Assembly: GCA_021818925.1 (NCBI GenBank)
Contig: JAKASU010000001.1
Coordinates: 188,035 to 252,034, forward strand
Direction of reading: 5' to 3'
Length of the DNA stretch: 64,000 nt
Source: Candidatus Micrarchaeota archaeon
GTDB lineage: Archaea > Micrarchaeota > Micrarchaeia > Micrarchaeales > CABMGC01
Shown in pieces: positions 7,585-50,593 of the stretch (positions are counted from its first letter, which is position 1; every line of letters starts with the position of its first letter). The translations under genes were made by a program, and so were the position numbers. Below the pieces are notes generated by a model. That model was not told where the DNA came from. It saw nothing but the letters and a program-made list of their open reading frames with translations, and did not search any database.

Positions 7585-7658
7585 GCCGCAGTAACTCAAT
7601 CCGGGAGAGTGTCCCGCTGAAGACGGGAATGTTGCTGGTTCAAATCCGGCCTGCGGCA
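7585..7658 (+). tRNA. tRNA-Phe(GAA)
   Basis: Acceptor GCCGCAG/CTGCGGC, anticodon arm TCCCG-CTGAAGA-CGGGA, T-loop TTCAAAT; no encoded CCA. Confidence 0.95.
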
Positions 7659-7723
7659 TCAGCCTGCTTGAAACAGCCCCATTATATGATTTGTACCGAG
7701 TAGGCTTCATTTGTGAGTTTATG

Positions 7724-7747
7724 AAAGTTATATATTTATATAACTTT
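7724..7747. promoter_or_regulatory. Inverted repeat over the TATA region, probable AbiE operator
   Basis: AAAGTTATATA-TT-TATATAACTTT, perfect 11-bp arms, 16 nt before the ATG at 7764. Confidence 0.7.
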
Positions 7748-7763
7748 GGTTGATTAATAAATT

Positions 7764-8399
7764 ATGGACATACCACTCGAAGTCGCGCTCTCTGGCAAAA
7801 GGCTCGACATAGCGCGCATGCAAGACCTGCTGATAGACCTGATATACGATTACGTGCAGCCCAACGCGATTCTGTACGGTGGCACGGCAATCTGGCGTTG
7901 CTTAGGTGGCGGCAGGTTTTCTGAAGATATCGACATATATGTAAACGCTCGTTTTCAGAGTAAACATGAGGCTGTACTGAAGCAAAATGGGCTAGAGATA
8001 ATCGACAGAGACAAAGAGCTACCACTGCACATGAGAATCTCAGACGGAAAGACTGACATTTTGCTTGAAGCCAGTATGGGCAGGTATGAAAATGTCATGG
8101 CGCAGTATACGAAGGTTGATGGCACGTCAATGACTATTTCAATGCTGCCTCCTGCAAAGTTATTTGCAAGGAAGATGGAGGCCTACAGGAGCAGGAAGTA
8201 CATTAGAGACCTTTATGACCTCGTGCACCTCACAAACTACGTAGATAAACACGACCACTATATTGAATTGAAACTTAGATCCTTCCTCGCAGATGTAGAA
8301 AAACCAGTCGATGGGCACATACTGCAATCGCTTGTCTACAAGGGACCAACAGCGTCTTTCGAGAAAATGATAAAGTACCTGAAGAGTTGGTCAGAATGA
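7764..8399 (+). CDS. AbiEii-like nucleotidyltransferase toxin (type IV TA)
   Basis: YGGTAI, RFSEDID and K..AY..R..IRDLYDL motifs. Confidence 0.9.
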   Translation: MDIPLEVALSGKRLDIARMQDLLIDLIYDYVQPNAILYGGTAIWRCLGGGRFSEDIDIYVNARFQSKHEAVLKQNGLEIIDRDKELPLHMRISDGKTDILLEASMGRYENVMAQYTKVDGTSMTISMLPPAKLFARKMEAYRSRKYIRDLYDLVHLTNYVDKHDHYIELKLRSFLADVEKPVDGHILQSLVYKGPTASFEKMIKYLKSWSE

Positions 8400-9058
8400 A
8401 GTATGACAGCGAGTTTAGAAAATACTTTTCTAAGATACCCATATTCACATTCAAGGACGCGGCGAGATTTCTTAAGAAGATGGGCGCTTCTGATGCTTAC
8501 GTGAAGTTGTTTATCCATAACCAAATGAAAAGGCACAGCCTTCTCAGAGTAGGTAGAGGCCGCTACACTTTCTCTAACAATGAAGCTATGGTCGGATTTG
8601 CCTTCGCTCCGTTCTACTATGGCCTCGAACACTCGCTGACTCTGCACAAACTCTGGACTCAGGTCTCAATCCCAGTTATAATAACAACGACCAAAGCGGT
8701 GCCTGGAATCAGGAATTCGATGGGCAAACGGGTTCTGGTAAGAAGGATATCCAAGAATATGTTTTTTGGTATAGAGCGGATTATGCATAACGGCGTATTT
8801 GTTCCGGTGTCTGACATCGAAAAAACACTGGTCGATTTTGTTTATTTCAATATAAATTTAAGCGATGAGGAGACGAAAAGAGTGATGCGGGAGTGTAATG
8901 TTGAAAAACTCGCGAGGTATGCCAAAAAATGTAACAGAGGCATAAGAACGAGGATTGAGAATATGATGAAGGATATGCGGAGCTGGGAGCACGAACAAAA
9001 CAAAAAGATTGGGCAACCGTACCTCAGGGGGTACTGCAGGCCTGCGGAATTCAACTAA
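8396..9058 (+). CDS. AbiEi-like antitoxin / wHTH regulator
   Basis: IFTFKDA wHTH start, RVGRGRY, FYYGLEHSL..H and SDIEKTLVD; ATGA overlap with the toxin stop. Confidence 0.85.
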   Translation: MKYDSEFRKYFSKIPIFTFKDAARFLKKMGASDAYVKLFIHNQMKRHSLLRVGRGRYTFSNNEAMVGFAFAPFYYGLEHSLTLHKLWTQVSIPVIITTTKAVPGIRNSMGKRVLVRRISKNMFFGIERIMHNGVFVPVSDIEKTLVDFVYFNINLSDEETKRVMRECNVEKLARYAKKCNRGIRTRIENMMKDMRSWEHEQNKKIGQPYLRGYCRPAEFN

Positions 9059-10170
9059 TCTTTGAGAATAAATTCTTCGAGCCTGTCCCTTAACTTGTCT
9101 TTCTTCTTCCTGTGCTCCTCAAGGAACCTATTTATCCTCTTTGCGAGGTCGTCCTTGTGCTCTCCGGCAAGAAGAGTGCCCTTTCTCTCCCCATCGAATA
9201 TCTTCTCTAGCTTCTTGTCGTCAGTCTCGAAGAGGTACTTGTAGTATTGGCAGACCGAGCACTTTTCCGGATCTCCCCCTAGTTTCTTCTGAAGCTCTGC
9301 CGTTGACTGCTGCCCTGTTATCGCCCTGTGCACCTTCTTCTCCACCACCTCTGGCGTATCGCTCAGGTAGATGGTGTCGTTCGGGTCGCTTGCCGACATC
9401 TTCGGCCTGCCGCCGAGCCCCGGGAGGAACTTTGCGTGCACTATCGCCGGCTTGTAGTAGCCCAGCTTTACGAGCGCGTCCCTTGCGACCCTGAAGTGCA
9501 CGTCCTGGTCTATCGCCAGCGGAATTAGGCATGGCACGTTCTTCTTCTCCTCGACAGATTTCAGGAACGCGGGCACAGCCTGCATGCTGGTGTAGAATAT
9601 GCTGCCTATGTTGGTCTCGTTAGTGAAACCGAACGCGTCCTTTACCATGGAGAATGTTATGCGCTTCGCGACCCTGACAGCCTGCCTGTAGAGGGTGCCG
9701 GCATAATCAGTATTGAAGAAGATCTTCGTCTTCTTCGGGTCGTAGCCTAGCGCGATGATGTTGAGCGCGTCATCGTAGGCAAGCTTGTGAACCTCATCGA
9801 AGCTCACGTTCCTGATCAGCGCCTTCTCCTCATCGGGTATCTGGATGTAGACCTCTGCCCCGAACTTCTCTTGGAGCCATTGGGTGAACATGAATGGTAT
9901 GAGGTGTCCCAGAGTCATCGAGCCGCTGGGCGCTATGCCTGTGTAGAGGTAGAACCTGTTGCCCTTCTCGTACTCGTCGAGCAGCCAGTTCATGTCCCTA
10001 TGGGCGTAGAAGATGTGCCTCCGTAGGAGCCAGTGGGAGCCTCCAGCCAGTTTCTCTATCCGCTCCTCGAGCTTCTTGTCTATCATGCTTATCCCGAACT
10101 CCTTGGCGAACCTCTCGTAGTCTATCTTGCCTTCTACGTCATACGGGGTTACCTTGAAGTTTTCAGACAT
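9055..10170 (-). CDS. trpS: Tryptophan--tRNA ligase, archaeal type
   Basis: VTPYDV, LLRR..F.AHRD, YTGIAPSG..LGH, IDQD.HFR and KMSAS. Confidence 0.97.
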   Translation of the reverse strand: MSENFKVTPYDVEGKIDYERFAKEFGISMIDKKLEERIEKLAGGSHWLLRRHIFYAHRDMNWLLDEYEKGNRFYLYTGIAPSGSMTLGHLIPFMFTQWLQEKFGAEVYIQIPDEEKALIRNVSFDEVHKLAYDDALNIIALGYDPKKTKIFFNTDYAGTLYRQAVRVAKRITFSMVKDAFGFTNETNIGSIFYTSMQAVPAFLKSVEEKKNVPCLIPLAIDQDVHFRVARDALVKLGYYKPAIVHAKFLPGLGGRPKMSASDPNDTIYLSDTPEVVEKKVHRAITGQQSTAELQKKLGGDPEKCSVCQYYKYLFETDDKKLEKIFDGERKGTLLAGEHKDDLAKRINRFLEEHRKKKDKLRDRLEEFILKD

Positions 10171-10196
10171 GGGCTCAACTATTGATAAATGGGCAA

Positions 10197-11642
10197 TTAT
10201 TTAAAGTGAGCATCGCTCGGGTACCAGACCGTGCCGTATTCCGTGTCCTCGATTTTTATACCGTGCTTCGACTCTATCTCCGTCCTCATCCTGTCCGCCT
10301 CTTCGAAGTTCTTGCTCTTCCTGAGATCGTCCCTCTGCTTTATCAGGAGGCTCGCGTCTTCGGGCAGCGTTTGCTTGTATATGCTCTCATTCACTATGCC
10401 AAGGAGCGTTCCCAAAACGGAAAGCTTGCCTATCGCCAGCTCTCTGGATTTCTGGTCGGTGCTGCCCTGCGCGTCAGCGAACTGCCTGACCTTCCTCATA
10501 GCCGCGGTCATCTTCATCAGGGCAAGCGGCGTGTTGAAGTCGTCGTTCATCGCATCGGCGAAGTCCTTCTCCAGTTGCTCCGCAATATTTACCAGCTCTT
10601 GCCCGCCGCTTCCTCCGTTCACTGGAAGGTTGTAGAGTATGCCTATCGACTGATTGATGTAGTACATGAGCTTGTTGGCGTCGCGCATCAGCTCATCCGT
10701 GTAGTTTATCTCCTTCCTGTAATGGGTCATGCAGACAAAGAGCCTAAGCGTCTCTGCCGGATATTCTGCAAGCGCTTCGCGTATCGTTATGAAGTTCTTC
10801 AGGCTCTTGCTCATCTTCTGCCCCTTTATGCTGAGCACGCCAGAGTGCAGCCAGTACTTTACGAACGGCTTAACCCCGAAGGCGGCCTCTGCCTGCGCGA
10901 TCTCGTTGGTATGGTGCGGGAAGATGAGCTCGCTTGCGCCTCCGTGTATGTCGTACTGCGGGCCGAAGAACGAGTAGGTTATCGCAGTGTCTTCTATGTG
11001 CCAGCCTGGCCTGCCGGAGAGCTTGACCTGTTTGCCATCGCTCTTCACCTCTATCTCCCACGAAGGCTCTCCGGGCTTGCTCGCCTTCCACAGGGCGAAA
11101 TCGTACACGTTCTTCTTGCCCTCCTTCGGCTCTATCCTGTGCTTCTCGAGTTCGTCTATCTTCATCCCTGACAGCTTCGTGTAGTCCTGAAACTTCGATA
11201 CGTCGTAATAGACGTCGCCGTCCAGCAGGTAGGCGTAGCCCTTGTCGATGAGCAGCTGCATCTGGTCGCGCATGGCGTTGATGTAATCGTGGGATCTGGG
11301 ATAAGACGACACGCTCTGCTTAACGCCTATCGCCTCCATGTCCTCCATGAACCTCTTCTCGCACTCGCGGGCCAGTTCAACAGGGTCTACGCCCTTCTCC
11401 TTCGCCCTGGCTATTATCTTGTCGTCTATGTCTGTTATGTTCTGTATGTAGTTTATCTCGTAGCCGGCGTGCCTCAGCCACCTCGCCACTATGTCGAACG
11501 AGATGTAGGTCCGTGCGTGCCCCAGATGGGCGTCATCGTACACTGTCTGGCCGCACACGAACATGTTTGCCTTCTTGCCGTGCATAGGTATGAACTCCTC
11601 CTTGCCCCTGGAGAGCGTATTGTATACCTGCAAGCGTTGCAC
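10197..11642 (-). CDS. cysS: Cysteine--tRNA ligase
   Basis: CGQTVYD.AHLGH, NITDIDDKII, DFALWK, GRPGWHIE, FPHH.NE and KMSKS. Confidence 0.97.
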   Translation of the reverse strand: MQRLQVYNTLSRGKEEFIPMHGKKANMFVCGQTVYDDAHLGHARTYISFDIVARWLRHAGYEINYIQNITDIDDKIIARAKEKGVDPVELARECEKRFMEDMEAIGVKQSVSSYPRSHDYINAMRDQMQLLIDKGYAYLLDGDVYYDVSKFQDYTKLSGMKIDELEKHRIEPKEGKKNVYDFALWKASKPGEPSWEIEVKSDGKQVKLSGRPGWHIEDTAITYSFFGPQYDIHGGASELIFPHHTNEIAQAEAAFGVKPFVKYWLHSGVLSIKGQKMSKSLKNFITIREALAEYPAETLRLFVCMTHYRKEINYTDELMRDANKLMYYINQSIGILYNLPVNGGSGGQELVNIAEQLEKDFADAMNDDFNTPLALMKMTAAMRKVRQFADAQGSTDQKSRELAIGKLSVLGTLLGIVNESIYKQTLPEDASLLIKQRDDLRKSKNFEEADRMRTEIESKHGIKIEDTEYGTVWYPSDAHFK

Positions 11643-11701
11643 CGAAGATAGTTTGATGGTTAAAATATTAAGGTTGACGCACTAAGAATCGTGTCGATTC
11701 C

Positions 11702-11887
11702 ATGAGGAGAGGAACTGTCACTTTCATGCTTGCTGTGCTGATAGCGTACATGGTGCAGGGCTCTATCTGGTACACGATGCCGTTGATATTCGCGCATGCG
11801 TTTGCCAACAACTACTTTGCTGTGGGACTGCTTATAGCGATCATACCGCTCATAGAGGTACTCGCCTTCAGGAAAAAGGATTTCTAA
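11702..11887 (+). pseudogene. Two-helix membrane ORF, probably a truncated MFS transporter N-terminus
   Basis: 61 aa with two TM helices resembling MFS TM1-TM2, ending 42 nt before tRNA-Gly. Confidence 0.4.
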
Positions 11888-11929
11888 CTATGCATATGAT
11901 TTTAATCCTGAATGGCGTAGCTAATGCAG

Positions 11930-12002
11930 GCGAGCGTAGTCTAGCCTGGTAGGACGTAGCCTTGCCAAGGCTATAACCCGGGTTCAAATCCCGGCGCTCG
12001 CA
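11930..12002 (+). tRNA. tRNA-Gly(GCC)
   Basis: Acceptor GCGAGCG/CGCTCGC, anticodon arm TAGCC-TTGCCAA-GGCTA, T-arm CCGGG-TTCAAAT-CCCGG. Confidence 0.95.
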
Positions 12003-12059
12003 CAGTGAAAATACGCGTACACGGGTCCAGATCCCATACGTAAACCTTTCTGGATGATA

Positions 12060-12626
12060 CTATCTACTCACGTTGACCTCAGCGTACATCTCTGTGCCTG
12101 TGCAGTAAGTATCGACCACCTGTGAGCCTGCTGGGAAAACGAAGAGGCTCATGGCTGTTCCGGTGCTATTGTTGCAGATTGCGTTTGCCTGCGCGCTTGT
12201 CACATTGTATGTAGCGCCAAGGTTGTATATGGTGTAAGGACTGAACCATACTAATGCAAATCCGGCACCGAGTTCAATCAATGTGATTACTATGGCTATG
12301 GCAATGAAGTGGCGATAGATTTTGCTGTGTTTTTGCATAAGCCAAAGCAACACGCCACCTATTATGAAGCCGAACATCACCATTTCGATGGCTACGAAAA
12401 GGTTGTATTGCCCCTTGTCCGGATTTTCATCTATGCCCTTCTTTGCCACATAAAGCAAAATTAACAGGAAGACCACTGTTACGAATATTGCCAAGGTGTC
12501 TGTAGCTAGAAAATTCAGCAATGCGAAAGAGATTATGCCTCCAAGTATGAAGGCTGCCCAGAAGCCGGGCTTGTCAGAGAAGGTTACCTTCCTTGCCGTT
12601 TTCTTACTTGCTATTTGCTTAGACAA
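12060..12626 (-). CDS. Hypothetical 4-TM membrane protein with a small extracellular C-terminal domain
   Basis: 188-aa ORF, TTG start after GTGA, four hydrophobic segments, two C-terminal Cys; AT-richer than flanks. Confidence 0.65.
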   Translation of the reverse strand: MSKQIASKKTARKVTFSDKPGFWAAFILGGIISFALLNFLATDTLAIFVTVVFLLILLYVAKKGIDENPDKGQYNLFVAIEMVMFGFIIGGVLLWLMQKHSKIYRHFIAIAIVITLIELGAGFALVWFSPYTIYNLGATYNVTSAQANAICNNSTGTAMSLFVFPAGSQVVDTYCTGTEMYAEVNVSR

Positions 12627-12699
12627 GGAATCACTTAATAGTGGAGAACTACTTAAACTTAAATAGTTAACCTAACTTACGTCATAGCATAGCGACATT

Positions 12700-12813
12700 A
12701 TGACCAGGCCGGAGAAGAAAATCTTGGATTGGTTCAAAGCGCATCCAGACGAAGATGTGACTGCTAAGACATCGGCTAAAAAGATTCGCGCTAAAGAACT
12801 GGGCGGAGGTTGA
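12700..12813 (+). pseudogene. 37-aa ORF resembling a wHTH N-terminal fragment
   Basis: MTRPEKKILDWFKAHPDEDVTAKTSAKK...; divergent from the 12626 gene across an AT-rich spacer. Confidence 0.3.
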
Positions 12814-13045
12814 AAACATGCCCTGGCACTTGTCTGAAACGATGTTGTTGACAAACCGGTTCTAGGAGAATGTGTCTCAAGAATCAATGCGTGGGAGTTC
12901 GGCTTTAGAATACCCAACACGGTGCGCGAGAATTTTCAAATCAGGTAGCCTATTTAAAATATAGAGAATTGTATGTTATTCGAAAGCGTTTGGAAATTTT
13001 GATTTAATCAATCTGCCCTGCGCTCGCAGTCATGTGTGTGGTACA

Positions 13046-13600
13046 ATGCGCGTCTCGAAGAAAGCGAACATCGGTGTAAGAAACAGGATAGAGGAGTTCG
13101 ACCACAGGATCTATAGAGACCTGAGGCACAAGCGCAACAGGAAGCACATACTGATACCCACCCTGATCACCACGATAGCGCTGATCCTGCTGATCTACAT
13201 CTTCAAGATCGCGAACCTCGACCTAAGGAGCAACATAGGCTACTCGCTCGTGGTCTTCACCTCCTTCGCGGGCAGCGCCTTCATACTGTTCATGACCCCA
13301 TACTCGAGGTCGTCGAGCACAAGGAGGTTCGTGAAGAGCTACGCGATAGCCAGCGTATTCGGCGAGCTGGGCTACCTGCTGACCGGGATTATAGGTTTCT
13401 ATCCTGCGGCGGCGTTCACAATCTTCGTGGTTGCGCTGCTCCTCTTTGAGACCGACAGCGCTCACCCTCCGGCAATGGGCATAGCTTTCGCCTTCGTGAT
13501 CTTCCAGATAGATTACGCGGGCCTAGTGATAGTCGTGCTGGGCGTGGCCCTCTTCGCTGGATTGAAACTGCTGCTCGAGAAGTTGAGAATCAACCCTTAA
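13046..13600 (+). CDS. HPP family membrane protein
   Basis: SFAGSAFILF.TP and AHPPA motifs, multiple TM helices. Confidence 0.85.
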   Translation: MRVSKKANIGVRNRIEEFDHRIYRDLRHKRNRKHILIPTLITTIALILLIYIFKIANLDLRSNIGYSLVVFTSFAGSAFILFMTPYSRSSSTRRFVKSYAIASVFGELGYLLTGIIGFYPAAAFTIFVVALLLFETDSAHPPAMGIAFAFVIFQIDYAGLVIVVLGVALFAGLKLLLEKLRINP

Positions 13601-13626
13601 ATACCTAAGAGGAGAACTCTCCCTGT

Positions 13627-13700
13627 GCGAGCGTAGTCTAGCCTGGTTAGGACTTTGCCCCTCCAAGGCAAAGAGCCGGGTTCAAATCCCGGCGCTCGCA
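13627..13700 (+). tRNA. tRNA-Gly(TCC) with C at position 33
   Basis: Same acceptor and T arms as tRNA-Gly(GCC); anticodon arm TTGCC-CCTCCAA-GGCAA. Confidence 0.88.
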
Positions 13701-13703
13701 TCC

Positions 13704-14936
13704 CTACTTCTTGGGCCTCAGCGCGACAAACCCGTACCTGTCGACATCAATGTATTTGCTGCAGTACTTCCTGAAGTCGTCTATGCTTACGCTGGTTATC
13801 AGGTTCGGAAACCGCTCTGTGAGCGTGGGTTCGTTGTAAACCGTCAGGTCCTCGGACATTGAAAGGGCTGTGCTCAGTGTGTCCTCCCTTCCTGTCAGCA
13901 TCCTGATCTTGTAACCGCGCTGTCGTGTCCTCAGCTCGCTCTTCGTTATCTCGCCGTCCTGCAACTTCTCGAATTCCTTCAGCAATATCTCTTTTGCTTT
14001 TTCTAGATTTACAGGCTCGATCCCGGCACCTGCTGCCAGAAAGCCAAAAGTGGAGTACAGGGAATACGACGCGCTCGGATCGTACGAAAGGCCGCGCTTC
14101 TCCCTTATCTCATCGTACAGCCTGTTTTTGAGCACCTCATAGATTACGGACACGGAAAGCATCTCCCTCATTCCCGCATCTACGAACCCCTTGGTTTTGA
14201 ATCCCATTCCTATCCTTGTCTGCTTTATGCCCTTCTTCCATACTGTCAGTTCCTTTTTGACCTGCGCCTCTCTGGCTGTGTTTCTTTTCGGCGCGGCCCC
14301 TTTCTTCTCGAAGTCGCCGAAGTACTTCTTCATTGTGGATATTATCTTTGCAGTTCCGACTCCGCCATAGACCGACACAAACATGTTGTTGGGCGAATAA
14401 TGGCTGTCGTAGATGCGCAATAGGTCTTCGCGTGTTGTGCGCCTTATCGATTTCTCGTCACCCCCGACCGAGAGCCTTGCCGGATGCTTGCTGTACAAAA
14501 CCTTGGGCAAAAAGTCGTAGAACATGTATATCGGCATGTCGCTGTGCAGGAGGTTCTCGTTTATTATCGGACCTCGTTCGAGCTCGAACTCTTTTTCAGG
14601 GAACACCGAGTTCCTGACCTGGTCTGAGAGAAGGTCGACCGCCCTTTCGAAGTATCCCTTGTAGCACCAGAGGAAATATGTTGTGGATTCCTTGTTCGTG
14701 AAAGCGTTCTGCTCCATGCCGTAGTTTCTCGCCTCCTCGATTATCTCCCGCCACGTCCTTTTCTTCGTGCCCTTGAACAGCATATGCTCGAGATAGTGCG
14801 CGGCGCCTCCTACGCGCGGATTGTCATCTATAGATCCGTATCTAAAACTTACGGCAATACCCACGGTCTGAAATTGGGGAGTCGAACGCATGGCGATCTT
14901 TACTCCGTTGTCCAGCTGCGCCGTTTTTGTCATCAT
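13704..14936 (-). CDS. M16 family zinc peptidase
   Basis: GAAHYLEHMLFKGT (HxxEH), NAFT and REKRGLSY motifs. Confidence 0.95.
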   Translation of the reverse strand: MMTKTAQLDNGVKIAMRSTPQFQTVGIAVSFRYGSIDDNPRVGGAAHYLEHMLFKGTKKRTWREIIEEARNYGMEQNAFTNKESTTYFLWCYKGYFERAVDLLSDQVRNSVFPEKEFELERGPIINENLLHSDMPIYMFYDFLPKVLYSKHPARLSVGGDEKSIRRTTREDLLRIYDSHYSPNNMFVSVYGGVGTAKIISTMKKYFGDFEKKGAAPKRNTAREAQVKKELTVWKKGIKQTRIGMGFKTKGFVDAGMREMLSVSVIYEVLKNRLYDEIREKRGLSYDPSASYSLYSTFGFLAAGAGIEPVNLEKAKEILLKEFEKLQDGEITKSELRTRQRGYKIRMLTGREDTLSTALSMSEDLTVYNEPTLTERFPNLITSVSIDDFRKYCSKYIDVDRYGFVALRPKK

Positions 14937-14993
14937 TCAATCCATCTCATTTTGTGTTTCACTTTTAAATATCAGTAACGTGTTCTATGATTC

Positions 14994-15284
14994 ATGAAGG
15001 TAACCATGACTGTACACGGGATAGTGCAGGGCGTCGGCTACAGGAATTTAGTGAGGGAGGTCGCCGCAAGACACGGAATAGCGGGCAGCGTGCGAAACGT
15101 GAGCGACGGCAGTGTTGAGATAGTCGCTGTCGGAACCTCTGAGTCGCTGGAAGGCTTCGAGCGGGAGATAAAGGTTAACGAGCGTTACGGGCCTCAGGTG
15201 ATGCACGTGGAGAGGAAGGAGCACGGCACCGCTTCGGATTCCGAATACAAGGGCTTCAGGATAGAAAAGGACAAGCGCCTATAG
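14994..15284 (+). CDS. acyP: Acylphosphatase
   Basis: VHG.VQGVGYR and GSVRN..DGSVE signatures. Confidence 0.93.
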   Translation: MKVTMTVHGIVQGVGYRNLVREVAARHGIAGSVRNVSDGSVEIVAVGTSESLEGFEREIKVNERYGPQVMHVERKEHGTASDSEYKGFRIEKDKRL

Positions 15285-16769
15285 CTCATAGTGCTCTTTT
15301 AGCAAGGGCAGCACTACCTTGTACTTGTTCTTCAGCTCCTCAGCGAACTCCTTCTGCTTCGTCTCGTCCCCGTGCACTATGAAGATGTTCTTCAGGCCCT
15401 TGACGCTGCTTATCAGCCTGAGAAGCTGAGCCTTGTCCGCGTGGCCCGAGAGGTGGTACGCCTCAACCTTAAGCCCGATCTTCACCTTCTTGCCGTCCAG
15501 CGATATCTCCTTGGCGCCGTTCAGCAGCTCCCTTCCCGGCGTTCCCTCGGCCTGGTAGCCGACCATGATGAGCTTGTTCATGTAGCTGTCTCCGAGCTTC
15601 TCCAGGTATCTTATCACCGGCCCTCCCTTCAGCATTCCGCTCGTGGTCACGATTATCGCAGCGCCCTCGGTCTTTATCACCTTCTGCCTGTCGTCCCTCC
15701 CTTCCACCGGGTGGAAGTTGGGGCTCTTGAATGGGTCGTCCTCGCTCATGAGTATGCGCTTCTGCAGTTCCTGCTTGCAGTATATGACGTTGTGCCTGTA
15801 GATGCGCATCGCCTTGTTGATCATTCCGTCGACGAATATCGGCACCTTCGGGATCGAGCCAGAGCGCATGTGGTCATCGAGGAGGAAGAGGACCTCCTGC
15901 GCCCTGCCCACCGCGAAGCTCGGTATTATCACCTTGCCTCCCTTGTTCAGCGTCTCCTTTATGCTCTCGGTGAATCCGGCCATGACTATCTTCTCCGAAG
16001 GGAAGATGTCTCCCTTGCCGCTGTACGTGCTCTCTGTTATGAGCGTGGCTGCGTTGAGGTACTCCGTGTATGCGGGGTCGAGCAGCTTGGTGCCCTTCAG
16101 GTTTATGTCACCTGTGTATAGGAGCCTGTTGTCGCCCTCCCTTATCTCCACCATGGCGCTGCCCAGGATGTGACCCGCTGGCACGAGCTTTATAGCGAGG
16201 TCCTTCACCCTGAACTCCTCATGGTACTCTACCATCTTGTAGTGCTTTGGCATCTTCGCAATCGCATCTTTTTTGATTCCCTTCGGTTTCGAGATCTGCA
16301 GGTAGTCGCTTGCTATCACGTTCACGAGCTCGAGCGTGGGCTTGAGCGAGTATATGGGACCGTTGAACCCGTTCGAGATGACGTGCGGCAGGTAGCCGCA
16401 GTGGTCCAGGTGGGCGTGCGATATGACAACGGCGTCGATGTGCTTGAGCATCGAGTCCTCTATCATCGGGTGCTCCTCCACCTCGCCAAGCTTTATCCCG
16501 GCGTCGATCAGTATCTTTGTGCCCTTGCCCTCGACCATTATGCAGCTTCTTCCCACCTCCCTGGCCGCACCGTAGAAGGTAAGCCTAAGCTTGCCCTCCT
16601 TTATCACCTCGTCCGCCTCCTTCGGCCTCCTCTCCTCCCTGGGCTTTGCGGGCTCTCTCGGCCTTGGGGCCGTCCTGTGCCTCGCTTCGCCGCGCCCTGT
16701 CTTTTGATAGGGCTTCATGTATGTCCTTTCTACGTCCCACTCATCAGTGTCTGCTAATTTTCTTTCCAT
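15279..16769 (-). CDS. beta-CASP metallo-beta-lactamase ribonuclease (aCPSF-like, no KH domains)
   Basis: EVGRS, SHAHLDH, AGHILGS, ESTY, FAVGRAQE and SGHAD; charged disordered N-terminus. Confidence 0.9.
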   Translation of the reverse strand: MERKLADTDEWDVERTYMKPYQKTGRGEARHRTAPRPREPAKPREERRPKEADEVIKEGKLRLTFYGAAREVGRSCIMVEGKGTKILIDAGIKLGEVEEHPMIEDSMLKHIDAVVISHAHLDHCGYLPHVISNGFNGPIYSLKPTLELVNVIASDYLQISKPKGIKKDAIAKMPKHYKMVEYHEEFRVKDLAIKLVPAGHILGSAMVEIREGDNRLLYTGDINLKGTKLLDPAYTEYLNAATLITESTYSGKGDIFPSEKIVMAGFTESIKETLNKGGKVIIPSFAVGRAQEVLFLLDDHMRSGSIPKVPIFVDGMINKAMRIYRHNVIYCKQELQKRILMSEDDPFKSPNFHPVEGRDDRQKVIKTEGAAIIVTTSGMLKGGPVIRYLEKLGDSYMNKLIMVGYQAEGTPGRELLNGAKEISLDGKKVKIGLKVEAYHLSGHADKAQLLRLISSVKGLKNIFIVHGDETKQKEFAEELKNKYKVVLPLLKEHYEL

Positions 16770-16830
16770 ATTGCATCAATTCTTTTTCTTTCAATTCCTT
16801 TTTGCTGTGCGTTTTTCCTATCCTATCATT

Positions 16831-17466
16831 CTATTCTTCTTTCTTTTTTATCGTGGCGATGTCCTCGAGGCTTACCTCGAAAGGTCCCTCGTGCTTGGGC
16901 GTTCGCTTCGGCCTGTGCTCGTCCGTGCTCTTCTTCCATCCGGTTAGGCCCCTGAGATTGGCATAGAGCGCATCGAGCTTCTTGTCGACCTCAAGCACCT
17001 GGTTCTTGTACGACTCCAGTGCCTTCCCTATCTCGTCTATATCCTTCGCCACGAGCTCAACCTTTCGCTTGAACCTGTAGGCGTTGAGGGCCTCGTCAAG
17101 TTCCTTGTTGATCTCGTTAAGCCTCTTTATCAGCTCCCTCTCGGCCGTGAGGGTGGCGGCCTCGGTGGCGATCTTGAACTCGATGCTGCTCTTCATCCTC
17201 TTCAGCCTGCCGACGTTCTTCGGGGCCGGGCTTGACACGGAGAGCTTGGATAGCGCTACCTGCTCCTCCAGCTTGTAGTTCATCTTCCCGCGCAGCCTGC
17301 GCATCTGGTCTATGAGTTGCGCGCGCTTCTTCTTCTCCTCCTCTATCTGCGCGTTTAGCCTTGTAGATGCTTCGCTCTGCGGGCTCTGTATCTTCGCAGG
17401 CTCCGGCTGCTTGCCCGCTTCCTGCTTCGCTTCTTCCGCCTTGATGTTATTTTCCGTTTCGCTCAG
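16831..17466 (-). CDS. Coiled-coil hypothetical protein, probable CTG start
   Basis: Frame stays open 54 codons upstream of the ATG at 17304, back to CTG 17466 overlapping the upstream TGA; IEFKIAT...ERELIK helix. Confidence 0.7.
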   Translation of the reverse strand: MSETENNIKAEEAKQEAGKQPEPAKIQSPQSEASTRLNAQIEEEKKKRAQLIDQMRRLRGKMNYKLEEQVALSKLSVSSPAPKNVGRLKRMKSSIEFKIATEAATLTAERELIKRLNEINKELDEALNAYRFKRKVELVAKDIDEIGKALESYKNQVLEVDKKLDALYANLRGLTGWKKSTDEHRPKRTPKHEGPFEVSLEDIATIKKKEE

Positions 17467-18644: not shown

Positions 18645-18654
18645 CAAAAAACAC

Positions 18655-19050
18655 TCAGAGCTTTACCGCTTCCCCTCCGGCCTGCCTTATCTTCTCCTCA
18701 GCGCTCTTGGAGAACTTGCTGGCCTTCACAACAACGGGTTTTGCAAGCTTGCCGTCGCCAAGCACCTTGTAGCCCTTCAGCTCTATGGTGGGCCTAGCTT
18801 CCTGCATACTCGCAGTCTTCTTGGAGATCGCGTAAAGGTCTATTATATCGAGGCTCTTCCTCCTCAACGGCGCAAACCCCTTCTTCCCTATCGTTTCCCT
18901 CTCGTAGACAACGGTGTATGTCCACTTGTGCCTTCCCCCGCCTCGGCCCACGCCTCCCCTGTCTCCGGCTCCCCTGGCGTTCTTTATGTTGCCTGCGCCC
19001 CAGCTCCTGTTGCCAAGGTACTTCCTCCTCTTCTTTATCCTCAGAACCAT
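18655..19050 (-). CDS. rpl15: 50S ribosomal protein uL15
   Basis: RGAGDRGGVG, GKKGF, KVLGDG and SKSAEEKI..AGG. Confidence 0.95.
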   Translation of the reverse strand: MVLRIKKRRKYLGNRSWGAGNIKNARGAGDRGGVGRGGGRHKWTYTVVYERETIGKKGFAPLRRKSLDIIDLYAISKKTASMQEARPTIELKGYKVLGDGKLAKPVVVKASKFSKSAEEKIRQAGGEAVKL

Positions 19051-19054
19051 GATC

Positions 19055-19480: not shown

Positions 19481-19640
19481 GTAGGACACGTCAGTAGTGT
19501 ATAGTATTCGCGTGATGAGTTTATAAGCGTACCTATGACCCCTGAAAAGGCTGAGAAAGATGCGCTGGCGCGCCAGAAACGGCGCTTTGCGAACTATGGG
19601 ATTTTATAACTTGTTTGCTTATCCTAACTAGGTCAAACAA

Positions 19641-25293: not shown

Positions 25294-25346
25294 GCGAGCA
25301 CTGAGAAATGATAAGAATATAATGACAAAAGAGTCTATAAAAGCGT

Positions 25347-46199: not shown

Positions 46200-46412
46200 A
46201 ATTGAGTAATCCATAGATCAAAAACAGGTTCTCCCTCCTGGGACTGCCAACAAAACTACACTATAGTTGATTGACGAGTGTAGAAACGACAAATCTATGA
46301 TGTGGAAAGAACCGACTTAAAGACGCACATGTTTAGAGCCGTAAGATTTGCGAGTTTCTCAAATCGCAAAGCAATATTTATATATGCTCTAAGAGATGTG
46401 AATAGGGGACAT

Positions 46413-46694
46413 ATGTCAAACGTCGAAAAAACTGCAGAAAGTAAAATTAAGGTTACTGAAGAAGTTTCCCGAATCGTTTCCCCCGCCTTAAAAGAAACGC
46501 TGAATCTGTTAAAAGATAGGATGGTGCAGTTAAGTAAGGCAGAAGGGATAGACGGGGAAACGGTAGAATTTGCTAACAGATATGCCTTGTCTAGTTTGCC
46601 GCCCGGACCACGAAGCAGACTGGAAATTGATGCTCATATAAGAGCAGAAATAAGCGGGGATTCAAAAAACTACAAAAAGCAATGGATGCTGTAA
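46413..46694 (+). CDS. Hypothetical protein in AT-rich island
   Basis: ATG at 46413 about 30 nt after a TTTATATA box; overlaps the next ORF. Confidence 0.5.
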   Translation: MSNVEKTAESKIKVTEEVSRIVSPALKETLNLLKDRMVQLSKAEGIDGETVEFANRYALSSLPPGPRSRLEIDAHIRAEISGDSKNYKKQWML

Positions 46695-46963
46695 TCAGTG
46701 ACATTGTTTTGATTTCTGAAGCACGCGATTTAAACGCGGGTGAGTTCGCCGGAAGAATAAGACGGTGGGGAGAAGAGAGCAAGATGCAGGCTATGGAATT
46801 CAGAGCTGCGATTGAGAGAAACAAAAGGAGCATAGCCGACGCAAAAACCTACAACGAAGTGCTCGGTCAAGCTGCACGATTACATAATGAACTTCACACT
46901 ATAGTCACAGGGCTCCCTGAGTATCTCTCTTCCTATGCAAACAATGACATACGTCACGATTGA
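46682..46963 (+). CDS. Hypothetical helical protein in AT-rich island
   Basis: 93-aa ORF overlapping the preceding one. Confidence 0.5.
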   Translation: MDAVISDIVLISEARDLNAGEFAGRIRRWGEESKMQAMEFRAAIERNKRSIADAKTYNEVLGQAARLHNELHTIVTGLPEYLSSYANNDIRHD

Positions 46964-47066
46964 GTTCTTAGGTACTGTTTTTGAAGCCACAAACCGAGCT
47001 TATTATAGTGAAGTTTCTTTTCATATCCTTTCCAGAAGATTTTCCATTCTCTGCCATTCATGAGGG

Positions 47067-47336
47067 CTAGTGTTTTATTAGAGATGCTCGTTTTGAAGTG
47101 AGATACTCTGCTAGCCTATCACCATTGGTAAAGAGCTCTTGCGGATCGTATGTCGTGAGCCTGAAAAGAACTTGGTGCTTCAGATCCTGCGGATCAAGAA
47201 GCGGTTTATTTTCAGCAACGAAATCGTTGACTCTCTGGGCTACAACTGGCCTTATAGATGATAGAAGAGGATCCGTAGGCCAGTTTTGCGACTGGAACTT
47301 AGATTCGGTTTTAATTCTTCCATCACGCAAGAGCAC
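47067..47336 (-). CDS. Hypothetical protein or pseudogene, start uncertain
   Basis: Frame is open about 21 codons beyond the GTG without an ATG; TTTAAATA box near 47420-47427. Confidence 0.35.
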   Translation of the reverse strand: MLLRDGRIKTESKFQSQNWPTDPLLSSIRPVVAQRVNDFVAENKPLLDPQDLKHQVLFRLTTYDPQELFTNGDRLAEYLTSKRASLIKH

Positions 47337-47599
47337 TCTTAGCTCCTCTCTTCGTAATTTCTCCGTTATCCCCGCCCCCGAGCCCTCCCTGGCTCTTATT
47401 TATATTGTGATTTTCTGCCTATTTAAACGAACTTGCAGCTTTGTTTTCATAGCCAAATAACGAAATCAAAGATCATAGAATATCGTTTGCTATTAAACGC
47501 TATAGAAAGGGCTCCTCACTCAAAGCGAGCCGCCCTCCTGGGGCTTTCAACCCTCAAAAGCGTGGTGGGGCTAATTAGTGGTTTTATAGATTTCTTGTA

Positions 47600-47621
47600 T
47601 TAGTTATCATTTGATAACTAA
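47600..47621. promoter_or_regulatory. Inverted repeat, probable operator of the second AbiE locus
   Basis: TTAGTTATCA-TT-TGATAACTAA with imperfect extension to TTTCT/AGAAA. Confidence 0.65.
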
Positions 47622-47657
47622 CAATAGAAATAAATATCTTTGCACCATAACATTATC

Positions 47658-48302
47658 ATGCAGACGAGTGAGTTCCTGAGGTTCCTGGAAGACAATGGCA
47701 TGCACGTATTTAACGTCAACGATGCCGCAAAAATACTACACCAGAAGAGGGGCTACACCAAGCTCTTCCTGCACAGATGCGCCAGCAGAGGTCTGATAGC
47801 CAGAATTGAGAGGGGGCTATACTACCTAAGGGAAAAAACAAACGAGTATGAGATTGCATCGAGCATCTTAAGCCCTTCATATGTCAGCATGGTATCGGCA
47901 CTGTATTACTACGGCTTAACCACCCAGATATCGCACACCATATACGTCATCTCGAGCAAGTGGCATCATAAAATAAATGACGCCATGGGGTATGAGATAT
48001 CATTCAGGACCGCCAGAAAGGATATGCTGTTCGGCTACCACAAGGAGGCTGGCGGAAACATATCAATAGCCGATCCGGAAAAAGCCATAGTTGACATATA
48101 CTATTTTAATGATATAAACGACCTGGATGAGAAGGCGCTCGATAGACCAAGCAGGATAGACGTGGCCAAGCTGGTCAGATACGCAGGAATGAGCGGCAGA
48201 GATACCGTAAAGTCAAGGGTGGCAACCCTACTGGCTGAACACGGATACAAAAGGGAAGCTACAAGACTGCTTGGGATGCAAGAAAAGAGGCGGGCTAAAT
48301 GA
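47658..48302 (+). CDS. AbiEi-like antitoxin
   Basis: VFNV.DA wHTH, RIERGLY, PSYVS..SAL.YYGL..Q and ADPEKA.VD. Confidence 0.9.
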   Translation: MQTSEFLRFLEDNGMHVFNVNDAAKILHQKRGYTKLFLHRCASRGLIARIERGLYYLREKTNEYEIASSILSPSYVSMVSALYYYGLTTQISHTIYVISSKWHHKINDAMGYEISFRTARKDMLFGYHKEAGGNISIADPEKAIVDIYYFNDINDLDEKALDRPSRIDVAKLVRYAGMSGRDTVKSRVATLLAEHGYKREATRLLGMQEKRRAK

Positions 48303-49075
48303 TAGACAAAGAATCACTGTTTGCACGGGGCGGCTATGAGCAGCCGTACCAGAATGAGAAGGACTACATCGAAGAAATGTTCCTGTCTGGGATATTCAAC
48401 AGCCTCGACTCTGTTGTATTCAGAGGCGGCACATCCATTTCAAAGTTCTATGGCTCTGTGAGATTTTCAGATGATCTGGACTTTTCTTTCGTACAGGATA
48501 AAGCGCAACAAAATGTAGCTGGTGTACTAGAAAAAGTTATCAAGAGCCTTTCGGAGTGGTATCCGATAAAAATAATGAGAAGAACGAACTCCGCTGGAAT
48601 GCTTACATATGAACTCAGCATAAGGGGTCCGCTATTCGAAACGCTCAACAAGTACCAACATCTGAAGATAGAGATAGACAAGAAGGCTTCTGTAGTGGAA
48701 ACTATAGGTAGATTTAGAAGAAATCCGAAGTATGATGATTTGAGGCCTTACTTGGCGCTTGTCATGAGCGAGAAAGAGATATTAGCTGAGAAGGTTGTTG
48801 CACTGCTGTTCAGGCGCAACCTCAAAGCTAGGGATTTGTATGATATCTATTATCTGGTAAATAAGAATGTTGAGATCAAGGTGGGCTTGATTGATAGGAA
48901 GATGAAAGAGTACGGCCACACCTTCAGTTCCGAAAGGCTGCACAAGAGGCTGATGGGCATATCAAAAATATGGGAGAAGGAACTGCGAAGGCTTCTGCCG
49001 AGCAAAGGTTTTGTTGATTATGAGATTGCGAAAGACGCCGTTGTCGCCAGCTTCACTAAAGCAGCTCTCATATGA
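48299..49075 (+). CDS. AbiEii-like nucleotidyltransferase toxin
   Basis: EKDY, FRGGT, RFSDDLDF and EILAEK..AL..R...RDLYD. Confidence 0.92.
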   Translation: MIDKESLFARGGYEQPYQNEKDYIEEMFLSGIFNSLDSVVFRGGTSISKFYGSVRFSDDLDFSFVQDKAQQNVAGVLEKVIKSLSEWYPIKIMRRTNSAGMLTYELSIRGPLFETLNKYQHLKIEIDKKASVVETIGRFRRNPKYDDLRPYLALVMSEKEILAEKVVALLFRRNLKARDLYDIYYLVNKNVEIKVGLIDRKMKEYGHTFSSERLHKRLMGISKIWEKELRRLLPSKGFVDYEIAKDAVVASFTKAALI

Positions 49076-49153
49076 CTGCCTTAAAGATTATGTTGGCGAG
49101 AATATGGCAAACTGAATAAGCCACAACCAAAAAAGAGTTATCCTACCTGGAGC

Positions 49154-50593
49154 TCAGACCGGATTGGGAGGGAATCTCGCCTTCGCCTCGGCTATCTCCC
49201 TGGTTACAGACTCTCTCCACGCCTTGAACTCGCCAATGCTCTTCGGATACTTCTTGTACATCTCGATGAGCTTCTTCATCTTGCTGTGCGCGAAGATCAG
49301 GTTCTTGAAGGCGCTGATGTTGCCGAGGCCGCTCAGCACCTTGCTGAACGTGCTTGCGAGCGTTATCTCGGGCACGAGCCCGTAGGCCATAGCTGTCGTC
49401 TCCTCCTTGGTCAGGAAGTGCGCCATTCCGTAGTCGATCTGCTCGTTGTTCAGGCTCTGCAGGAATATCCTGAAGACCTCAAGGCCGGCGGTCTTGTTGC
49501 CGTAGGCGTCGTTGAACCTCTGGTTGTATCTCCAGAGGAACTCCATACTTGTGTCTTTGGCAGCTATCGCCTCGGCCGCGGTCTTGCCGGCGAGTATACC
49601 GGCCACCATCGCCGGGCCTATGCCCCCGGCGCTTATCGGGTTGGGCATTGTCATTGTGTCTCCGGCTCCCATATAGTTCTTGTAAACAAGGCTGTCGAAC
49701 TGCCTCCTGACAGCGACAGACCAGTAGCCCTTGCCGTTGTGGTCGGTCTCGTCGACATTCATGTTTTTGAGTATCGGATTCCACGCAACGTACTCGTCTA
49801 TTAGCTTGTGAAGCGTGTCGGCCTTTCCCATCTTCTTGTTCCTCATGTCCAGGCTCTTCTTCTCCACGCCGATGCCTATGTTTATCTTGCCGTCGCTCTT
49901 CGGGAAGACCCAGCCGTAGCCTCCGGGAGCGAGCTGCTGGTTGAGGTGTATTATCGCGTTCTTCGGGTCGTAGAAGTTGAGGTCTTCGCCAGTGTGGTCG
50001 AATCTCGCTATGTACCTGCCAGTCGACTCTATGTCGTCAATGCTCACGTCCTTCTCTATGAACTCGTTAGGCGGCAGCCTCCTTCGCAGCGTGCTCGCCA
50101 TCCCGAGGCAGTCGATTATCACCCTTGCGCGGATCTCGAAGTGCTGCGTGTTCTTGTCCTTGCCGAACACACCCACCAGCTCGCCGTTCTCTATTACTGG
50201 ACCCTCGACCTCGTGCTTGGGCCTGTAGTCAGCTCCGGCCTTTACCGCCTCGTTGGTCATCCTCCTAGCGTACTTCGGCCTGTCGAGCGTGTAGCCCTCG
50301 CCGTCGAAGAGGAACTTGTTCTTCATGTTGGGGCTAAGAACGTATACGCCGTCTACTTTGTGGTCGATCTCAGGAGCCGACAGTTTTATGCCCGCCTCCT
50401 TTTCTATAAAATCTATGTGCGCCTTTGCGCACGCATCGCCACAGACCCAGCCCCAGTTGGTCTTCTTGCCGGCTTCCTGCGCATCGTTCCTATCAAGCAA
50501 AATAGTCTTCGCGCCGCCCTTCGCGGCCATTATGGCGGCGAGCTCGCCGGCCATTCCTGCCCCAGCAACTATGACGTCGAACTGCTCGCTCAT
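49154..50593 (-). CDS. Geranylgeranyl reductase family FAD oxidoreductase
   Basis: GAG.AG, CGDA, PGGYGWVFP, N.GIG and GD...NP...GGI. Confidence 0.9.
   Translation of the reverse strand: MSEQFDVIVAGAGMAGELAAIMAAKGGAKTILLDRNDAQEAGKKTNWGWVCGDACAKAHIDFIEKEAGIKLSAPEIDHKVDGVYVLSPNMKNKFLFDGEGYTLDRPKYARRMTNEAVKAGADYRPKHEVEGPVIENGELVGVFGKDKNTQHFEIRARVIIDCLGMASTLRRRLPPNEFIEKDVSIDDIESTGRYIARFDHTGEDLNFYDPKNAIIHLNQQLAPGGYGWVFPKSDGKINIGIGVEKKSLDMRNKKMGKADTLHKLIDEYVAWNPILKNMNVDETDHNGKGYWSVAVRRQFDSLVYKNYMGAGDTMTMPNPISAGGIGPAMVAGILAGKTAAEAIAAKDTSMEFLWRYNQRFNDAYGNKTAGLEVFRIFLQSLNNEQIDYGMAHFLTKEETTAMAYGLVPEITLASTFSKVLSGLGNISAFKNLIFAHSKMKKLIEMYKKYPKSIGEFKAWRESVTREIAEAKARFPPNPV

Follow-up and report, generated by a model that had tools for sequence, protein, structure and literature searches.

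Small integrase-less gene cassettes at tRNA 3' ends, and an insertion locus between L7Ae and fusA, in a Micrarchaeota genome

DPANN archaea have minimal genomes and depend upon host cells, which lends interest to the mode by which they gain and lose genes. Described here are five insertion loci in a stretch of 64,000 nucleotides, hereafter referred to as the window, from Candidatus Micrarchaeota archaeon assembly GCA_021818925.1 (genome G000; 760,734 bp in three contigs, GC content 0.53, 97.55% complete). The window corresponds to G000:C3:188035-252034, and positions given without a contig name are those of the window. Four of the loci, namely those following the genes for tRNA-Phe, tRNA-Gly, and tRNA-Glu and an island beside a reductase gene, probably arose through tyrosine-integrase recombination and are integrase-less in the manner of the bacterial cis-mobilizable elements (CIMEs). 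The fifth, located between the genes encoding L7Ae and elongation factor 2 (EF-2; fusA), probably arose through recombination between alleles. The insertions have exact boundaries, copies of tRNA 3' ends are enriched downstream of tRNA genes, relatives have these sites either empty or filled in other ways, one insertion is polymorphic within a population, and integrases occur at the same tRNAs in relatives. An earlier note, prepared from the DNA alone, had described recurrent, very small, integrase-less insertions at fixed docking sites; all five are real, their coordinates and contents check out, and their cargo does vary between relatives.

The tRNA genes were called with ARAGORN and Rfam, domains were assigned with Pfam and defence genes with PADLOC, and the comparison set consisted of 12 genomes of the same genus (G001-G012), referred to below as congeners. 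For several segments of the window G004 yields matches on two contigs that differ in identity, and its contamination is 3%; the assembly may be a mixture of two strains, and counts based upon it need care. The window contains genes for tRNA-Phe, tRNA-Gly(gcc), tRNA-Gly(tcc), tRNA-Glu(ctc), and tRNA-Leu (ARAGORN, Rfam). At three of the five loci the GC content falls to 0.43-0.45 (1-kb bins at 8-9, 12-13, and 46-49 kb) versus 0.53 genome-wide. The VapBC insert after tRNA-Glu has a GC content of 0.49, and the stretch with the nucleoside 2-deoxyribosyltransferase (NDT) and GH15 genes in the L7Ae-fusA gap displays a slight dip only. It had been anticipated that alignment with relatives would reveal empty or differently filled sites, and such sites were found: at four of the five loci the inserted DNA has no same-site nucleotide match in the 12 congeners, in which the sites are empty or otherwise filled.

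The first docking site is the gene for tRNA-Phe(GAA) at 7585-7658 (+ strand; ARAGORN, Rfam). Directly after it lies an AbiE cassette at 7659-9049 (+; Pfam, PADLOC) with a GC content of 0.44. An imperfect palindrome at 7709-7762 stands upstream of this first AbiE pair, which is formed by AbiEii (7764-8399, +; Pfam) and AbiEi (8387-9058, +; PADLOC). The cassette is closed by a direct copy of the tRNA-Phe 3' end at 9037-9049 (+), which matches at 11 of 13 positions and contains a 9-nt exact core, GGCCTGCGG. In G010 the AbiE cassette is absent and the flanks abut with a 12-nt overlap; the junction, ...ggcctgcggca followed directly by ttcaactaatcttt, is identical to the right junction in G000. The same boundaries enclose other contents in two further congeners. 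In G007 there is a 1.47-kb fill (GC 0.37) carrying a PIN gene and an orphan, with a 12/13 copy at its end, and in G009 there is an 873-nt VapBC cassette, with an 11/13 copy at its end, followed by a Fic gene; both copies are of the core found in G000. In G004 a 402-aa integrase is positioned 68 nt past the tRNA.

The second docking site, tRNA-Gly(GCC) at 11930-12003 (+; ARAGORN, Rfam), is followed by an orphan cassette at 12004-13028 (-; ORFs, Pfam, PADLOC). Its two open reading frames (ORFs) encode a membrane-like protein of 188 aa (12060-12626, -) and a protein of 82 aa (12672-12920, -), and it ends with a 12/13 copy of the tRNA-Gly end at 13016-13028 having a 9-nt core, GCGCTCGCA. Nothing in Pfam or PADLOC corresponds to the 188-aa ORF or to the other orphans. 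No relative of the 188-aa protein was found in genome, viral, or metagenome contig collections, and a 40-nt exact pattern from the cassette has no match in metagenome contigs. The site is empty in G010 and G009 and holds an HD-domain gene in G007. The copies had earlier been termed eroded, a description that does not suit those at tRNA-Phe and tRNA-Gly, which look like short 9-nt crossover cores and not like decayed long copies.

The Gly cassette is also variable within a population. All 18 sequencing runs were available as contigs, and X7, X11, X12, and X13 were compared with positions 7000-26900 of the window. One 916-nt contig of X11, a run from a study other than the likely source, matches 11121-11993 (873 nt) with no differences and continues at 13020. 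The joint skips the 1026-nt Gly cassette, with nine shared letters (GCGCTCGCA) and 43 letters beyond. The depth of the Gly cassette bin in X11 is 4.6 versus 11.5 for the joining contig. One contig of X7, on the other hand, runs through the cassette. From the X11 joint and X7 it follows that filled and empty Gly alleles with exact boundaries coexist among near-identical genomes. No joints across the Phe or Glu cassettes were seen in the contigs of these four runs, bins of X12 and X13 that lacked cover being left out of account. Other joints in the comparison, with sides of 21-40 letters in conserved genes, were taken to belong to other organisms and were set aside.

The third docking site is tRNA-Glu(CTC) at 25346-25422 (+; ARAGORN, Rfam), after which comes a VapBC cassette at 25423-26062 (+). 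A perfect palindrome of 28 nt in all, with two 14-nt arms, lies at 25427-25454, and VapB (25461-25661, +) and VapC, a PIN-domain protein (25645-26019, +; Pfam), follow. The tRNA-Glu 3' copy at 26032-26062 (+) matches at 28 of 32 positions with one gap, and the empirical p value for its 13-mer is 0.017. The DNA of this cassette has no match in 30 relatives; that of the Phe, Gly, and Glu cassettes alike has no nucleotide match in any congener, and the conserved cassette ends correspond to no RNA family in Rfam. At the Glu site G007 and G011 have ~0.3 kb, and in G004 a mini-insert of ~0.4 kb is accompanied by a 13/15 copy of its own. A fill encoding an amino-acid permease and a bPH protein is common to G010 and G009 at 70% nucleotide identity; it looks like ordinary gene content and was rejected as a cassette. 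Three predicted toxin-antitoxin (TA) modules are thus found in the window: a PIN gene with a small upstream ORF, and AbiEii with AbiEi twice. As had been claimed, each carries its own upstream palindrome, perfect at 25427-25454 and imperfect at 7709-7762 and 47585-47636.

The fourth insertion is a 2.95-kb low-GC island at 46200-49153 (+), between the metallophosphoesterase and geranylgeranyl-reductase-like genes. The site is empty, with the flanks 6-85 nt apart, in G004, G009, G007, G010, G006, and G005. The motif that recurs in the island is the tRNA-Thr(tgt) 3' end, CCCTCCTGGGGCT. A 12/13 copy lies at 46233-46245 (+), and a 13/13 copy at 47533-47545 (+) closes sub-cassette 1, which holds three orphan ORFs and has these two same-strand copies as its bounds. 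The second AbiE pair (47585-49075, +; Pfam) follows, with its palindrome at 47585-47636, AbiEi at 47640-48302 (+), and AbiEii at 48299-49075 (+). Native reductase 3'-end sequence at 49142-49154 (+) is like the tRNA-Thr end at ~10 of 13 positions by manual reading, and a 9-nt junction repeat is formed by GAGTAATCC (46204-46212) and GAGTTATCC (49135-49143). The arrangement suggests the integration of Thr-type cassettes at a secondary site of similar sequence near the reductase gene. Since the repeats of the island are tRNA-Thr ends, the reductase 3' end, which had been named as the docking site, is probably not the primary one, even though the insertion of the island is real.

The ends of sub-cassette 1 (48 nt at 83% and 135 nt at 84% identity), but not its cargo, are shared with a cassette at tRNA-Pro(tgg) in G009 (locus L057, G009:C25, 2395-4330). 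The direct repeat of that cassette is ~85 nt long and far exceeds a tRNA-only attachment (att) site: it begins with the final 11 nt of the tRNA, and a further ~75 nt, including a hairpin, come from the downstream flank. A homologue of the second AbiE pair, with 65% nucleotide identity, occurs in G001 (locus L058, contig C45, 4607-5875) ~230 nt from tRNA-Leu(tag), a docking site that differs from the one in the window.

Copies of tRNA ends were next counted over the whole genome, using the 46 tRNAs called by ARAGORN, the 3 kb downstream of each with tRNAs masked, and 400 random windows for each. A copy matching at least 11 of 13 positions was observed for 10 tRNAs versus 2.33 expected, and one matching at least 12 of 13 for four tRNAs versus 0.14 expected; the short copies are thus commoner than chance, as the proposal in the earlier note requires. 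At the same two thresholds the upstream control yielded 1 and 0 and the reverse-strand control 4 and 0. Taken together, the copies of the Phe, Gly, and Glu ends are not due to chance. When any tRNA end was allowed to match anywhere at 12 or more of 13 positions, 75 matches were found versus 53.8 ± 8.8 for shuffled queries. Exact 13/13 matches outside tRNA genes number only five in the genome; besides the Thr copy at 47533, three of the others are att repeats or adjoin one. An exact match to the tRNA-Lys(ttt) 3' end at G000:C1:52330 (-), outside the default ARAGORN calls, represents either a tRNA that escaped annotation or a further att copy.

Four similar cassettes, clearer than those of the window, are found elsewhere in the genome. 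At tRNA-Arg(gcg) a 53/53-nt repeat encloses a 745-nt PIN_2/antitoxin (VapBC) pair. A 16/17 repeat at tRNA-Ser(gct) encloses 634 nt of orphan cargo, a 13/13 repeat at tRNA-Asn encloses 1013 nt with CYTH and Doc genes, and a 12/12 repeat at tRNA-Ser(cga), an intron-containing call, encloses 874 nt with an EEP-family gene. After the gene for tRNA-Val(tac) comes a low-GC stretch in which a HepT/MNT pair and an orphan are found. The repeats are 9-53 nt long, and they are present as attL and attR at the two boundaries for Phe, Gly, Glu, Arg, Ser, Asn, and Ser(cga). The integrase-less inserts after tRNA genes are 0.6-1.4 kb in size and are mostly TA pairs. Summed by hand, att-bounded or hot-spot insert DNA amounts to ~21 kb of the 0.76-Mb genome and encodes mostly TA and abortive-infection functions.

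The pattern recurs across the order. Homologues of the PIN_2 toxin of the tRNA-Arg cassette, at no more than 50% identity, were found in 59 of 248 genomes, and a tRNA is present at nine of the 19 best loci. Five of the eight testable tRNAs have a downstream end copy enclosing a TA pair, versus none of eight upstream and one of eight on the reverse strand; the sites are Val(gac), Thr(tgt), Leu(cag), Ser(gct), and, weakly, Thr(ggt). Two loci are tandem arrays: in L076 a VapBC pair is followed by MNT/HepT with 30-nt copies between, and L080 contains two cassettes. The VapBC cassette of L073 (G241), ~20 nt after tRNA-Thr(tgt), contains GCCCAGCGTT, which is like the tRNA-Ser(gct) 3' end and may be the scar of an earlier residence at another tRNA, although a match of 9-10 nt could be due to chance. 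Homologues of AbiEii occur in 109 of the 248 genomes, a tally that includes one genome flagged as unpublished (G054), and a tRNA is present at five of 29 loci. The two closest homologues (65-67% identical) lie in 1.3-kb AbiE-only cassettes at tRNA-His with perfect repeats of 28 and 35 nt, and a third (57%) is flanked by tRNA-Arg(ccg) and a tRNA-like copy of 71 nt. The congener G003 has an AbiE-only cassette of 1.46 kb at tRNA-Arg(gcg), its repeat being 42 nt long. Cassette sizes are near-uniform across genera, being ~0.75-0.8 kb for PIN_2 and ~1.3-1.4 kb for AbiE.

No recombinase was detected in the window with PF00589, with 18 integrases as tblastn queries, or with other recombinase profiles, and the transposase matches of the genome likewise lie elsewhere, in agreement with the earlier note. 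Its suggestion that a tyrosine recombinase be sought outside the window was borne out by a single PF00589 gene at ~386 kb on contig C3, 134 kb past the window end. A DDE transposase is represented by one match in the genome, on C3 ~92 kb before the window start; neither a serine recombinase nor a Y1 transposase was found in the genome, and a TnpB-like match reached only 18 bits, which is sub-threshold. Cas1 (PF01867) was found in none of the 13 genomes of the genus, the control search having matched seven of 14 known genomes.

The resident integrase belongs to an element of 7377 nt (C3:379961-387337; GC 0.44) bounded by a perfect 26-nt repeat. Its cargo consists of a YHS/P-type metal ATPase, a metal-efflux enzyme suited to mine drainage, and a PadR/TRASH regulator. 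A foreign att scar, a copy of the 3' end of tRNA-Arg(tcg) matching at 13 of 13 positions, is located just within the repeat on the distal side. The integrase gene starts directly after an intron-containing tRNA at C3:387338-387477 that was missed by default ARAGORN. Its anticodon is CCA (Trp) by manual reading versus Arg(cct) by ARAGORN -i, and no other tRNA-Trp is among the listed tRNAs of the genome.

The genus as a whole contains 18 integrase genes in two families, A and B; the resident integrase belongs to family A and that beside tRNA-Phe in a congener to family B. Eight of the 18 lie within ~1.5 kb of a tRNA: Thr(cgt), Phe, Asn, Gln(ctg), Ser(gct), Ala(tgc), Val(gac), and Pro(tgg). Where repeats define the integrase elements of congeners, their sizes are 3.0, 3.0, 3.9, 6.3, 7.1, and 7.2 kb, with repeats of 12-42 nt. 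Congeners bear integrases at three of the tRNAs that have integrase-less cassettes in G000 (Phe, Ser(gct), and Asn); the integrase at tRNA-Asn in G003 has an in-frame TAG. The provision of an integrase in trans, as put forward in the note, is thus plausible, with both families occurring beside tRNAs that include Phe, Ser(gct), Asn, and Thr. A tblastn search with all 18 integrases revealed no fragment inside any G000 cassette, and the cassettes are filled with ORFs. The sole integrase remnant of the genome may be represented by a weak tblastn match at C3:295939-296055, ~1 kb downstream from tRNA-Val(gac), where 39 aa resemble the C-terminal region of a family B integrase (E = 0.005). An all-against-all comparison of 28 cassettes, elements, and fills by blastn and tblastx showed that they share only repeats, integrases, and AbiE and NDT homologies.

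The fifth locus is of a different kind. The L7Ae gene with its conserved leader (32923-33544, -; Pfam) includes the resident copy, 33336-33544, of a duplicated segment. Between it and fusA (36101-38293, -), the 3' end of which bounds the gap, are an NDT-domain gene (33545-34411, -; Pfam), a scar (34470-34680, -; self-BLAST), and a second insert, a weak GH15-like gene (34775-36094, +; Pfam 20.9 bits, cutoff 22). Positions 34470-34519 of the scar copy the fusA 3' end (36101-36151) with 82% identity over 51 nt, and positions 34502-34680 copy the L7Ae 5' end and leader (33336-33544) with 83% identity over 209 nt, the start-codon region being deleted. The order is accordingly [L7Ae 5' + leader]-NDT-[fusA 3' copy fused to L7Ae 5' + leader copy]-GH15-[fusA 3'], and this order of duplicated segments indicates two tandem units. 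The scar is not an att core; the order seen is the expected outcome of either one crossover involving a circularised allele or unequal exchange of an NDT allele with a GH15 allele. The locus would then consist of two alternative hot-spot fills stacked by single-crossover or unequal recombination between alleles, leaving behind the fused fusA-3'/L7Ae-5' scar. The homology-facilitated recombination that the earlier note had offered as one possibility fits here, illegitimate recombination being the other route by which the locus may have been built.

The gap is empty (6-83 nt) in four of the 12 congeners (G009, G003, G011, and G012). NDT is present in G010 and G004 with diverged homologues in G006 and G007, GH15 occurs only in G006, and G001, G005, and G008 have other fills. 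A total of 28 loci were examined for the gap, of which 14 had no L7Ae within the flank; in the 14 syntenic loci, from named Micrarchaeota, the gap measures 71-135 nt in seven and 1.0-2.4 kb in seven. Neither NDT nor GH15 has a PADLOC match as a defence gene, and GH15 is below its Pfam cutoff. The leader of ~100 nt upstream of L7Ae (33448-33544) shows conservation throughout the genus, and the scar has retained its copy at 34592-34680. Autoregulatory L7Ae-binding leaders are known in other archaea, and this leader may be of that type. Also in the window, at 29181-29415 (-), is the archaeal RNase P RNA (Rfam RF00373, 100 bits). A listed ORF of 208 aa is probably not a gene because the RNA overlaps its start on the opposite strand.

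For the Phe, Gly, and Glu inserts we favor site-specific recombination at tRNA 3' ends by a tyrosine integrase, the same recombination having presumably operated at a look-alike secondary site in the reductase island. A tyrosine integrase is the likely maker because the repeats always include the last bases of the tRNA, because integrases with the same targets occur in relatives, and because the cassettes share the low GC content of the integrase elements. The cassettes would draw upon one gene pool with the small (3.0-7.4 kb), low-GC, integrase-bearing tRNA elements of this genome and its congeners, and they would be CIME-like in having kept both attachment-site copies while the recombination genes are absent. 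In the version that we prefer, many of them would have been inserted, and would still be removable, as whole units by an integrase acting in trans from a sibling element. Such movement is favored because TA-only units of near-constant size recur at many tRNAs, because the long repeats are perfect and integrase debris is lacking, because units stand in arrays, and because there is one exact polymorphism. Addiction to the toxin-antitoxin pairs may account for their predominance in what stays. More tentatively, and with the odds somewhat against it, the Micrarchaeota may possess a distinct class of non-autonomous mobile elements, 0.6-1.4 kb long and made up of a single TA or orphan operon. The sole requirement of such elements in cis would be a tRNA 3'-end copy, and they would be moved and re-targeted among tRNAs by the integrases of sibling 3-7 kb elements. 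The tRNA set would then act as a scattered array of docking points for addiction and defence genes, a functional counterpart of an integron that relies on ordinary att recombination.

A number of observations weigh against this interpretation. The 13-nt matches are weak when taken alone, as the earlier note had itself cautioned, with empirical p values of 0.09 for Phe and 0.04 for Gly; at the reductase site the third motif copy and the 9-nt junction repeat are likewise weak. The sole resident integrase targets a tRNA other than those of the cassettes, and an integrase was not detected in five of the 12 congeners (completeness 71-96%). Mini-cassettes and integrase elements at the same tRNA share only the repeat, such that no common arm sites are evident. 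The Gly polymorphism comes from one contig of one run, and a deletion between the 9-nt repeats or an ancestral empty allele explains the X11 joint equally well. Neither an excised circle nor enzyme activity was seen, although contigs cannot show rare forms. There is no tRNA within ~1.5 kb at 24 of the 29 AbiEii loci and 10 of the 19 PIN_2 loci. Finally, in the 3-kb scan of the complete congener G003 only two of 36 tRNAs had a copy matching at least 11 of 13 positions versus 2.65 expected, and thus there is no enrichment; the tRNA-Arg AbiE cassette is the only one found there, and G003 also has a 3.9-kb tRNA-Asn element outside the scan range.

A good part of the evidence would also be explained if the cassettes were immobile wreckage, that is, small integrase-bearing elements that lost all but the TA pair by deletion, the loss of the TA pair being lethal, and that no longer move. 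Elements of the required kind do exist, as the earlier note had allowed in naming decayed integrase-bearing elements as the outcome that would count against it. They too are small (3.0-7.4 kb, and only 3-7 kb for those that congeners have at tRNA-Phe, Ser(gct), and Asn), where the note had spoken of large ones. The in-frame TAG in the G003 integrase at tRNA-Asn, the lack of a matching integrase in the genome, the differences at four of 32 positions in the Glu copy, and the lack of an excess in G003 all point the same way, and the route is one described for bacterial CIMEs in part of PMC5704250. Against this, the tblastn search with 18 integrases yielded no fragments, the perfect repeats, 53, 35, 30, and 28 nt in length, have intact TA-only units between them, and cassette sizes are near-uniform across genera. 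Moreover, orphan cargo that is not TA has been retained as well, and the Gly cassette is present or absent with exact boundaries within a near-identical population. Intermediates of decay between integrase elements and cassettes were not found, the repeat being all that the two share. We regard an origin of the cassettes as immobile remnants as rather unlikely, albeit one to be taken seriously.

A further explanation is an insertion that duplicates its target, in which case the repeats would not be carried by the element and any tRNA end would be open to one type of cassette. The variation in repeat length from 9 to 53 nt is as expected for such a route, as is the distribution of AbiE cassettes over Phe, His, Arg(ccg), and Arg(gcg) and of PIN_2 cassettes over Arg, Val, Thr, Leu, and Ser. 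The ~85-nt repeat at tRNA-Pro in G009 extends ~75 nt beyond the tRNA, and precedents, one of them beside a tRNA, are given in part of PMC2853133. Yet the integrase-bearing elements show the same range, with repeats of 12-42 nt, and the repeats always include the last bases of the tRNA. Copies of the tRNA-Thr and tRNA-Arg(tcg) ends within elements sited elsewhere indicate that att copies travel with the DNA, and no enzyme is known for the route, which is accordingly improbable. That the short matches are fortuitous and the regions simply fast-evolving or strain-specific native DNA is the least probable explanation by far. The p values of the Phe and Gly 13-mers taken alone, and the 75 genome-wide matches at 12 or more of 13 positions versus 53.8 ± 8.8 for shuffled queries, would be compatible with it. 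It is contradicted by the exact empty sites in relatives, by the low GC content and the long perfect repeats elsewhere in the genome, and by the flat wrong-side and wrong-strand controls.

How, then, do the cassettes compare with known systems? According to the portion of PMC5704250 concerned with CIMEs, these relatives of bacterial integrative and conjugative (ICE) or mobilizable (IME) elements are flanked by attL and attR at a target-gene 3' end, in many cases that of a tRNA gene, and lack integrase and transfer genes. They also occur in tandem with other elements, on whose related integrases they are thought to depend. The cassettes resemble them in having direct repeats of a tRNA end at both boundaries and no integrase or transfer genes inside and, apart from an origin by decay, they fit the definition given in that portion. 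They are unlike CIMEs in being archaeal, 0.6-1.4 kb in size, and composed of one operon that is mostly a bare TA pair, and in being spread over many tRNAs in one 0.76-Mb genome with no conjugative partner known. Closer in phylogeny are the "cryptic integrated elements" of Thaumarchaeota, for which part of PMC6563490 reports tRNA 3'-end targets, short repeats, low-GC cargo including VapBC, tandem arrays, and the use of protein-gene 3' ends as well. The 7.4-kb element of G000 and the 3-7 kb elements of its congeners fit the archaeal small tyrosine-integrase elements, whereas the five loci of the window lack the defining integrase.

Restriction-modification (RM) systems provide another parallel. 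In the "insertion with long target duplication" treated in part of PMC2853133, an addiction module inserts alone, with no mobility gene and with a duplication of tens of bases that may overlap a gene 3' end or a tRNA, and such insertions are recognised by the comparison of filled and empty sites. The cassettes differ in their TA and Abi cargo, in the tRNA terminus that is always within the repeat, and in the integrases with matching targets in relatives, differences that point to site-specific recombination. Like integron cassettes they are small, mostly single-operon, and often TA, form arrays at a docking site, and show turnover of cargo. The integron-like repertoire proposed in the earlier note does not hold beyond these likenesses. 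IntI, attI, attC, and a shared promoter are all absent; an operator and promoter are present for every TA pair, and the docking sites are many and tRNA-derived. The repeats at the boundaries directly copy tRNA ends that differ from site to site, and the palindromes lie upstream of the TA genes and are operator-like. With casposons the cassettes have in common the use of tRNA 3' ends and the EF-2 gene end as targets, as given in part of PMC6563490. A casposon origin was rejected on the grounds that Cas1 is absent from all 13 genomes of the genus, that no terminal inverted repeats are visible by eye, and that repeat length is not fixed. An insertion sequence or DNA transposon was likewise rejected, with transposase outside the window only, repeats of 9-53 nt, and again no terminal inverted repeats by eye.

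In a limited search of the literature no description of such cassettes in DPANN was encountered. Should they indeed be mobile as units, no smaller site-specific integrative elements would have been described in archaea, and they would offer a simple model for the spread of addiction modules without a recombinase of their own. If they are wreckage, toxin addiction would shape what survives the streamlining of a genome. The tRNA ends and the EF-2/L7Ae gap are the main points of gene turnover in this lineage, and the cassettes are an unusually small, gene-poor form of known mobile islands.

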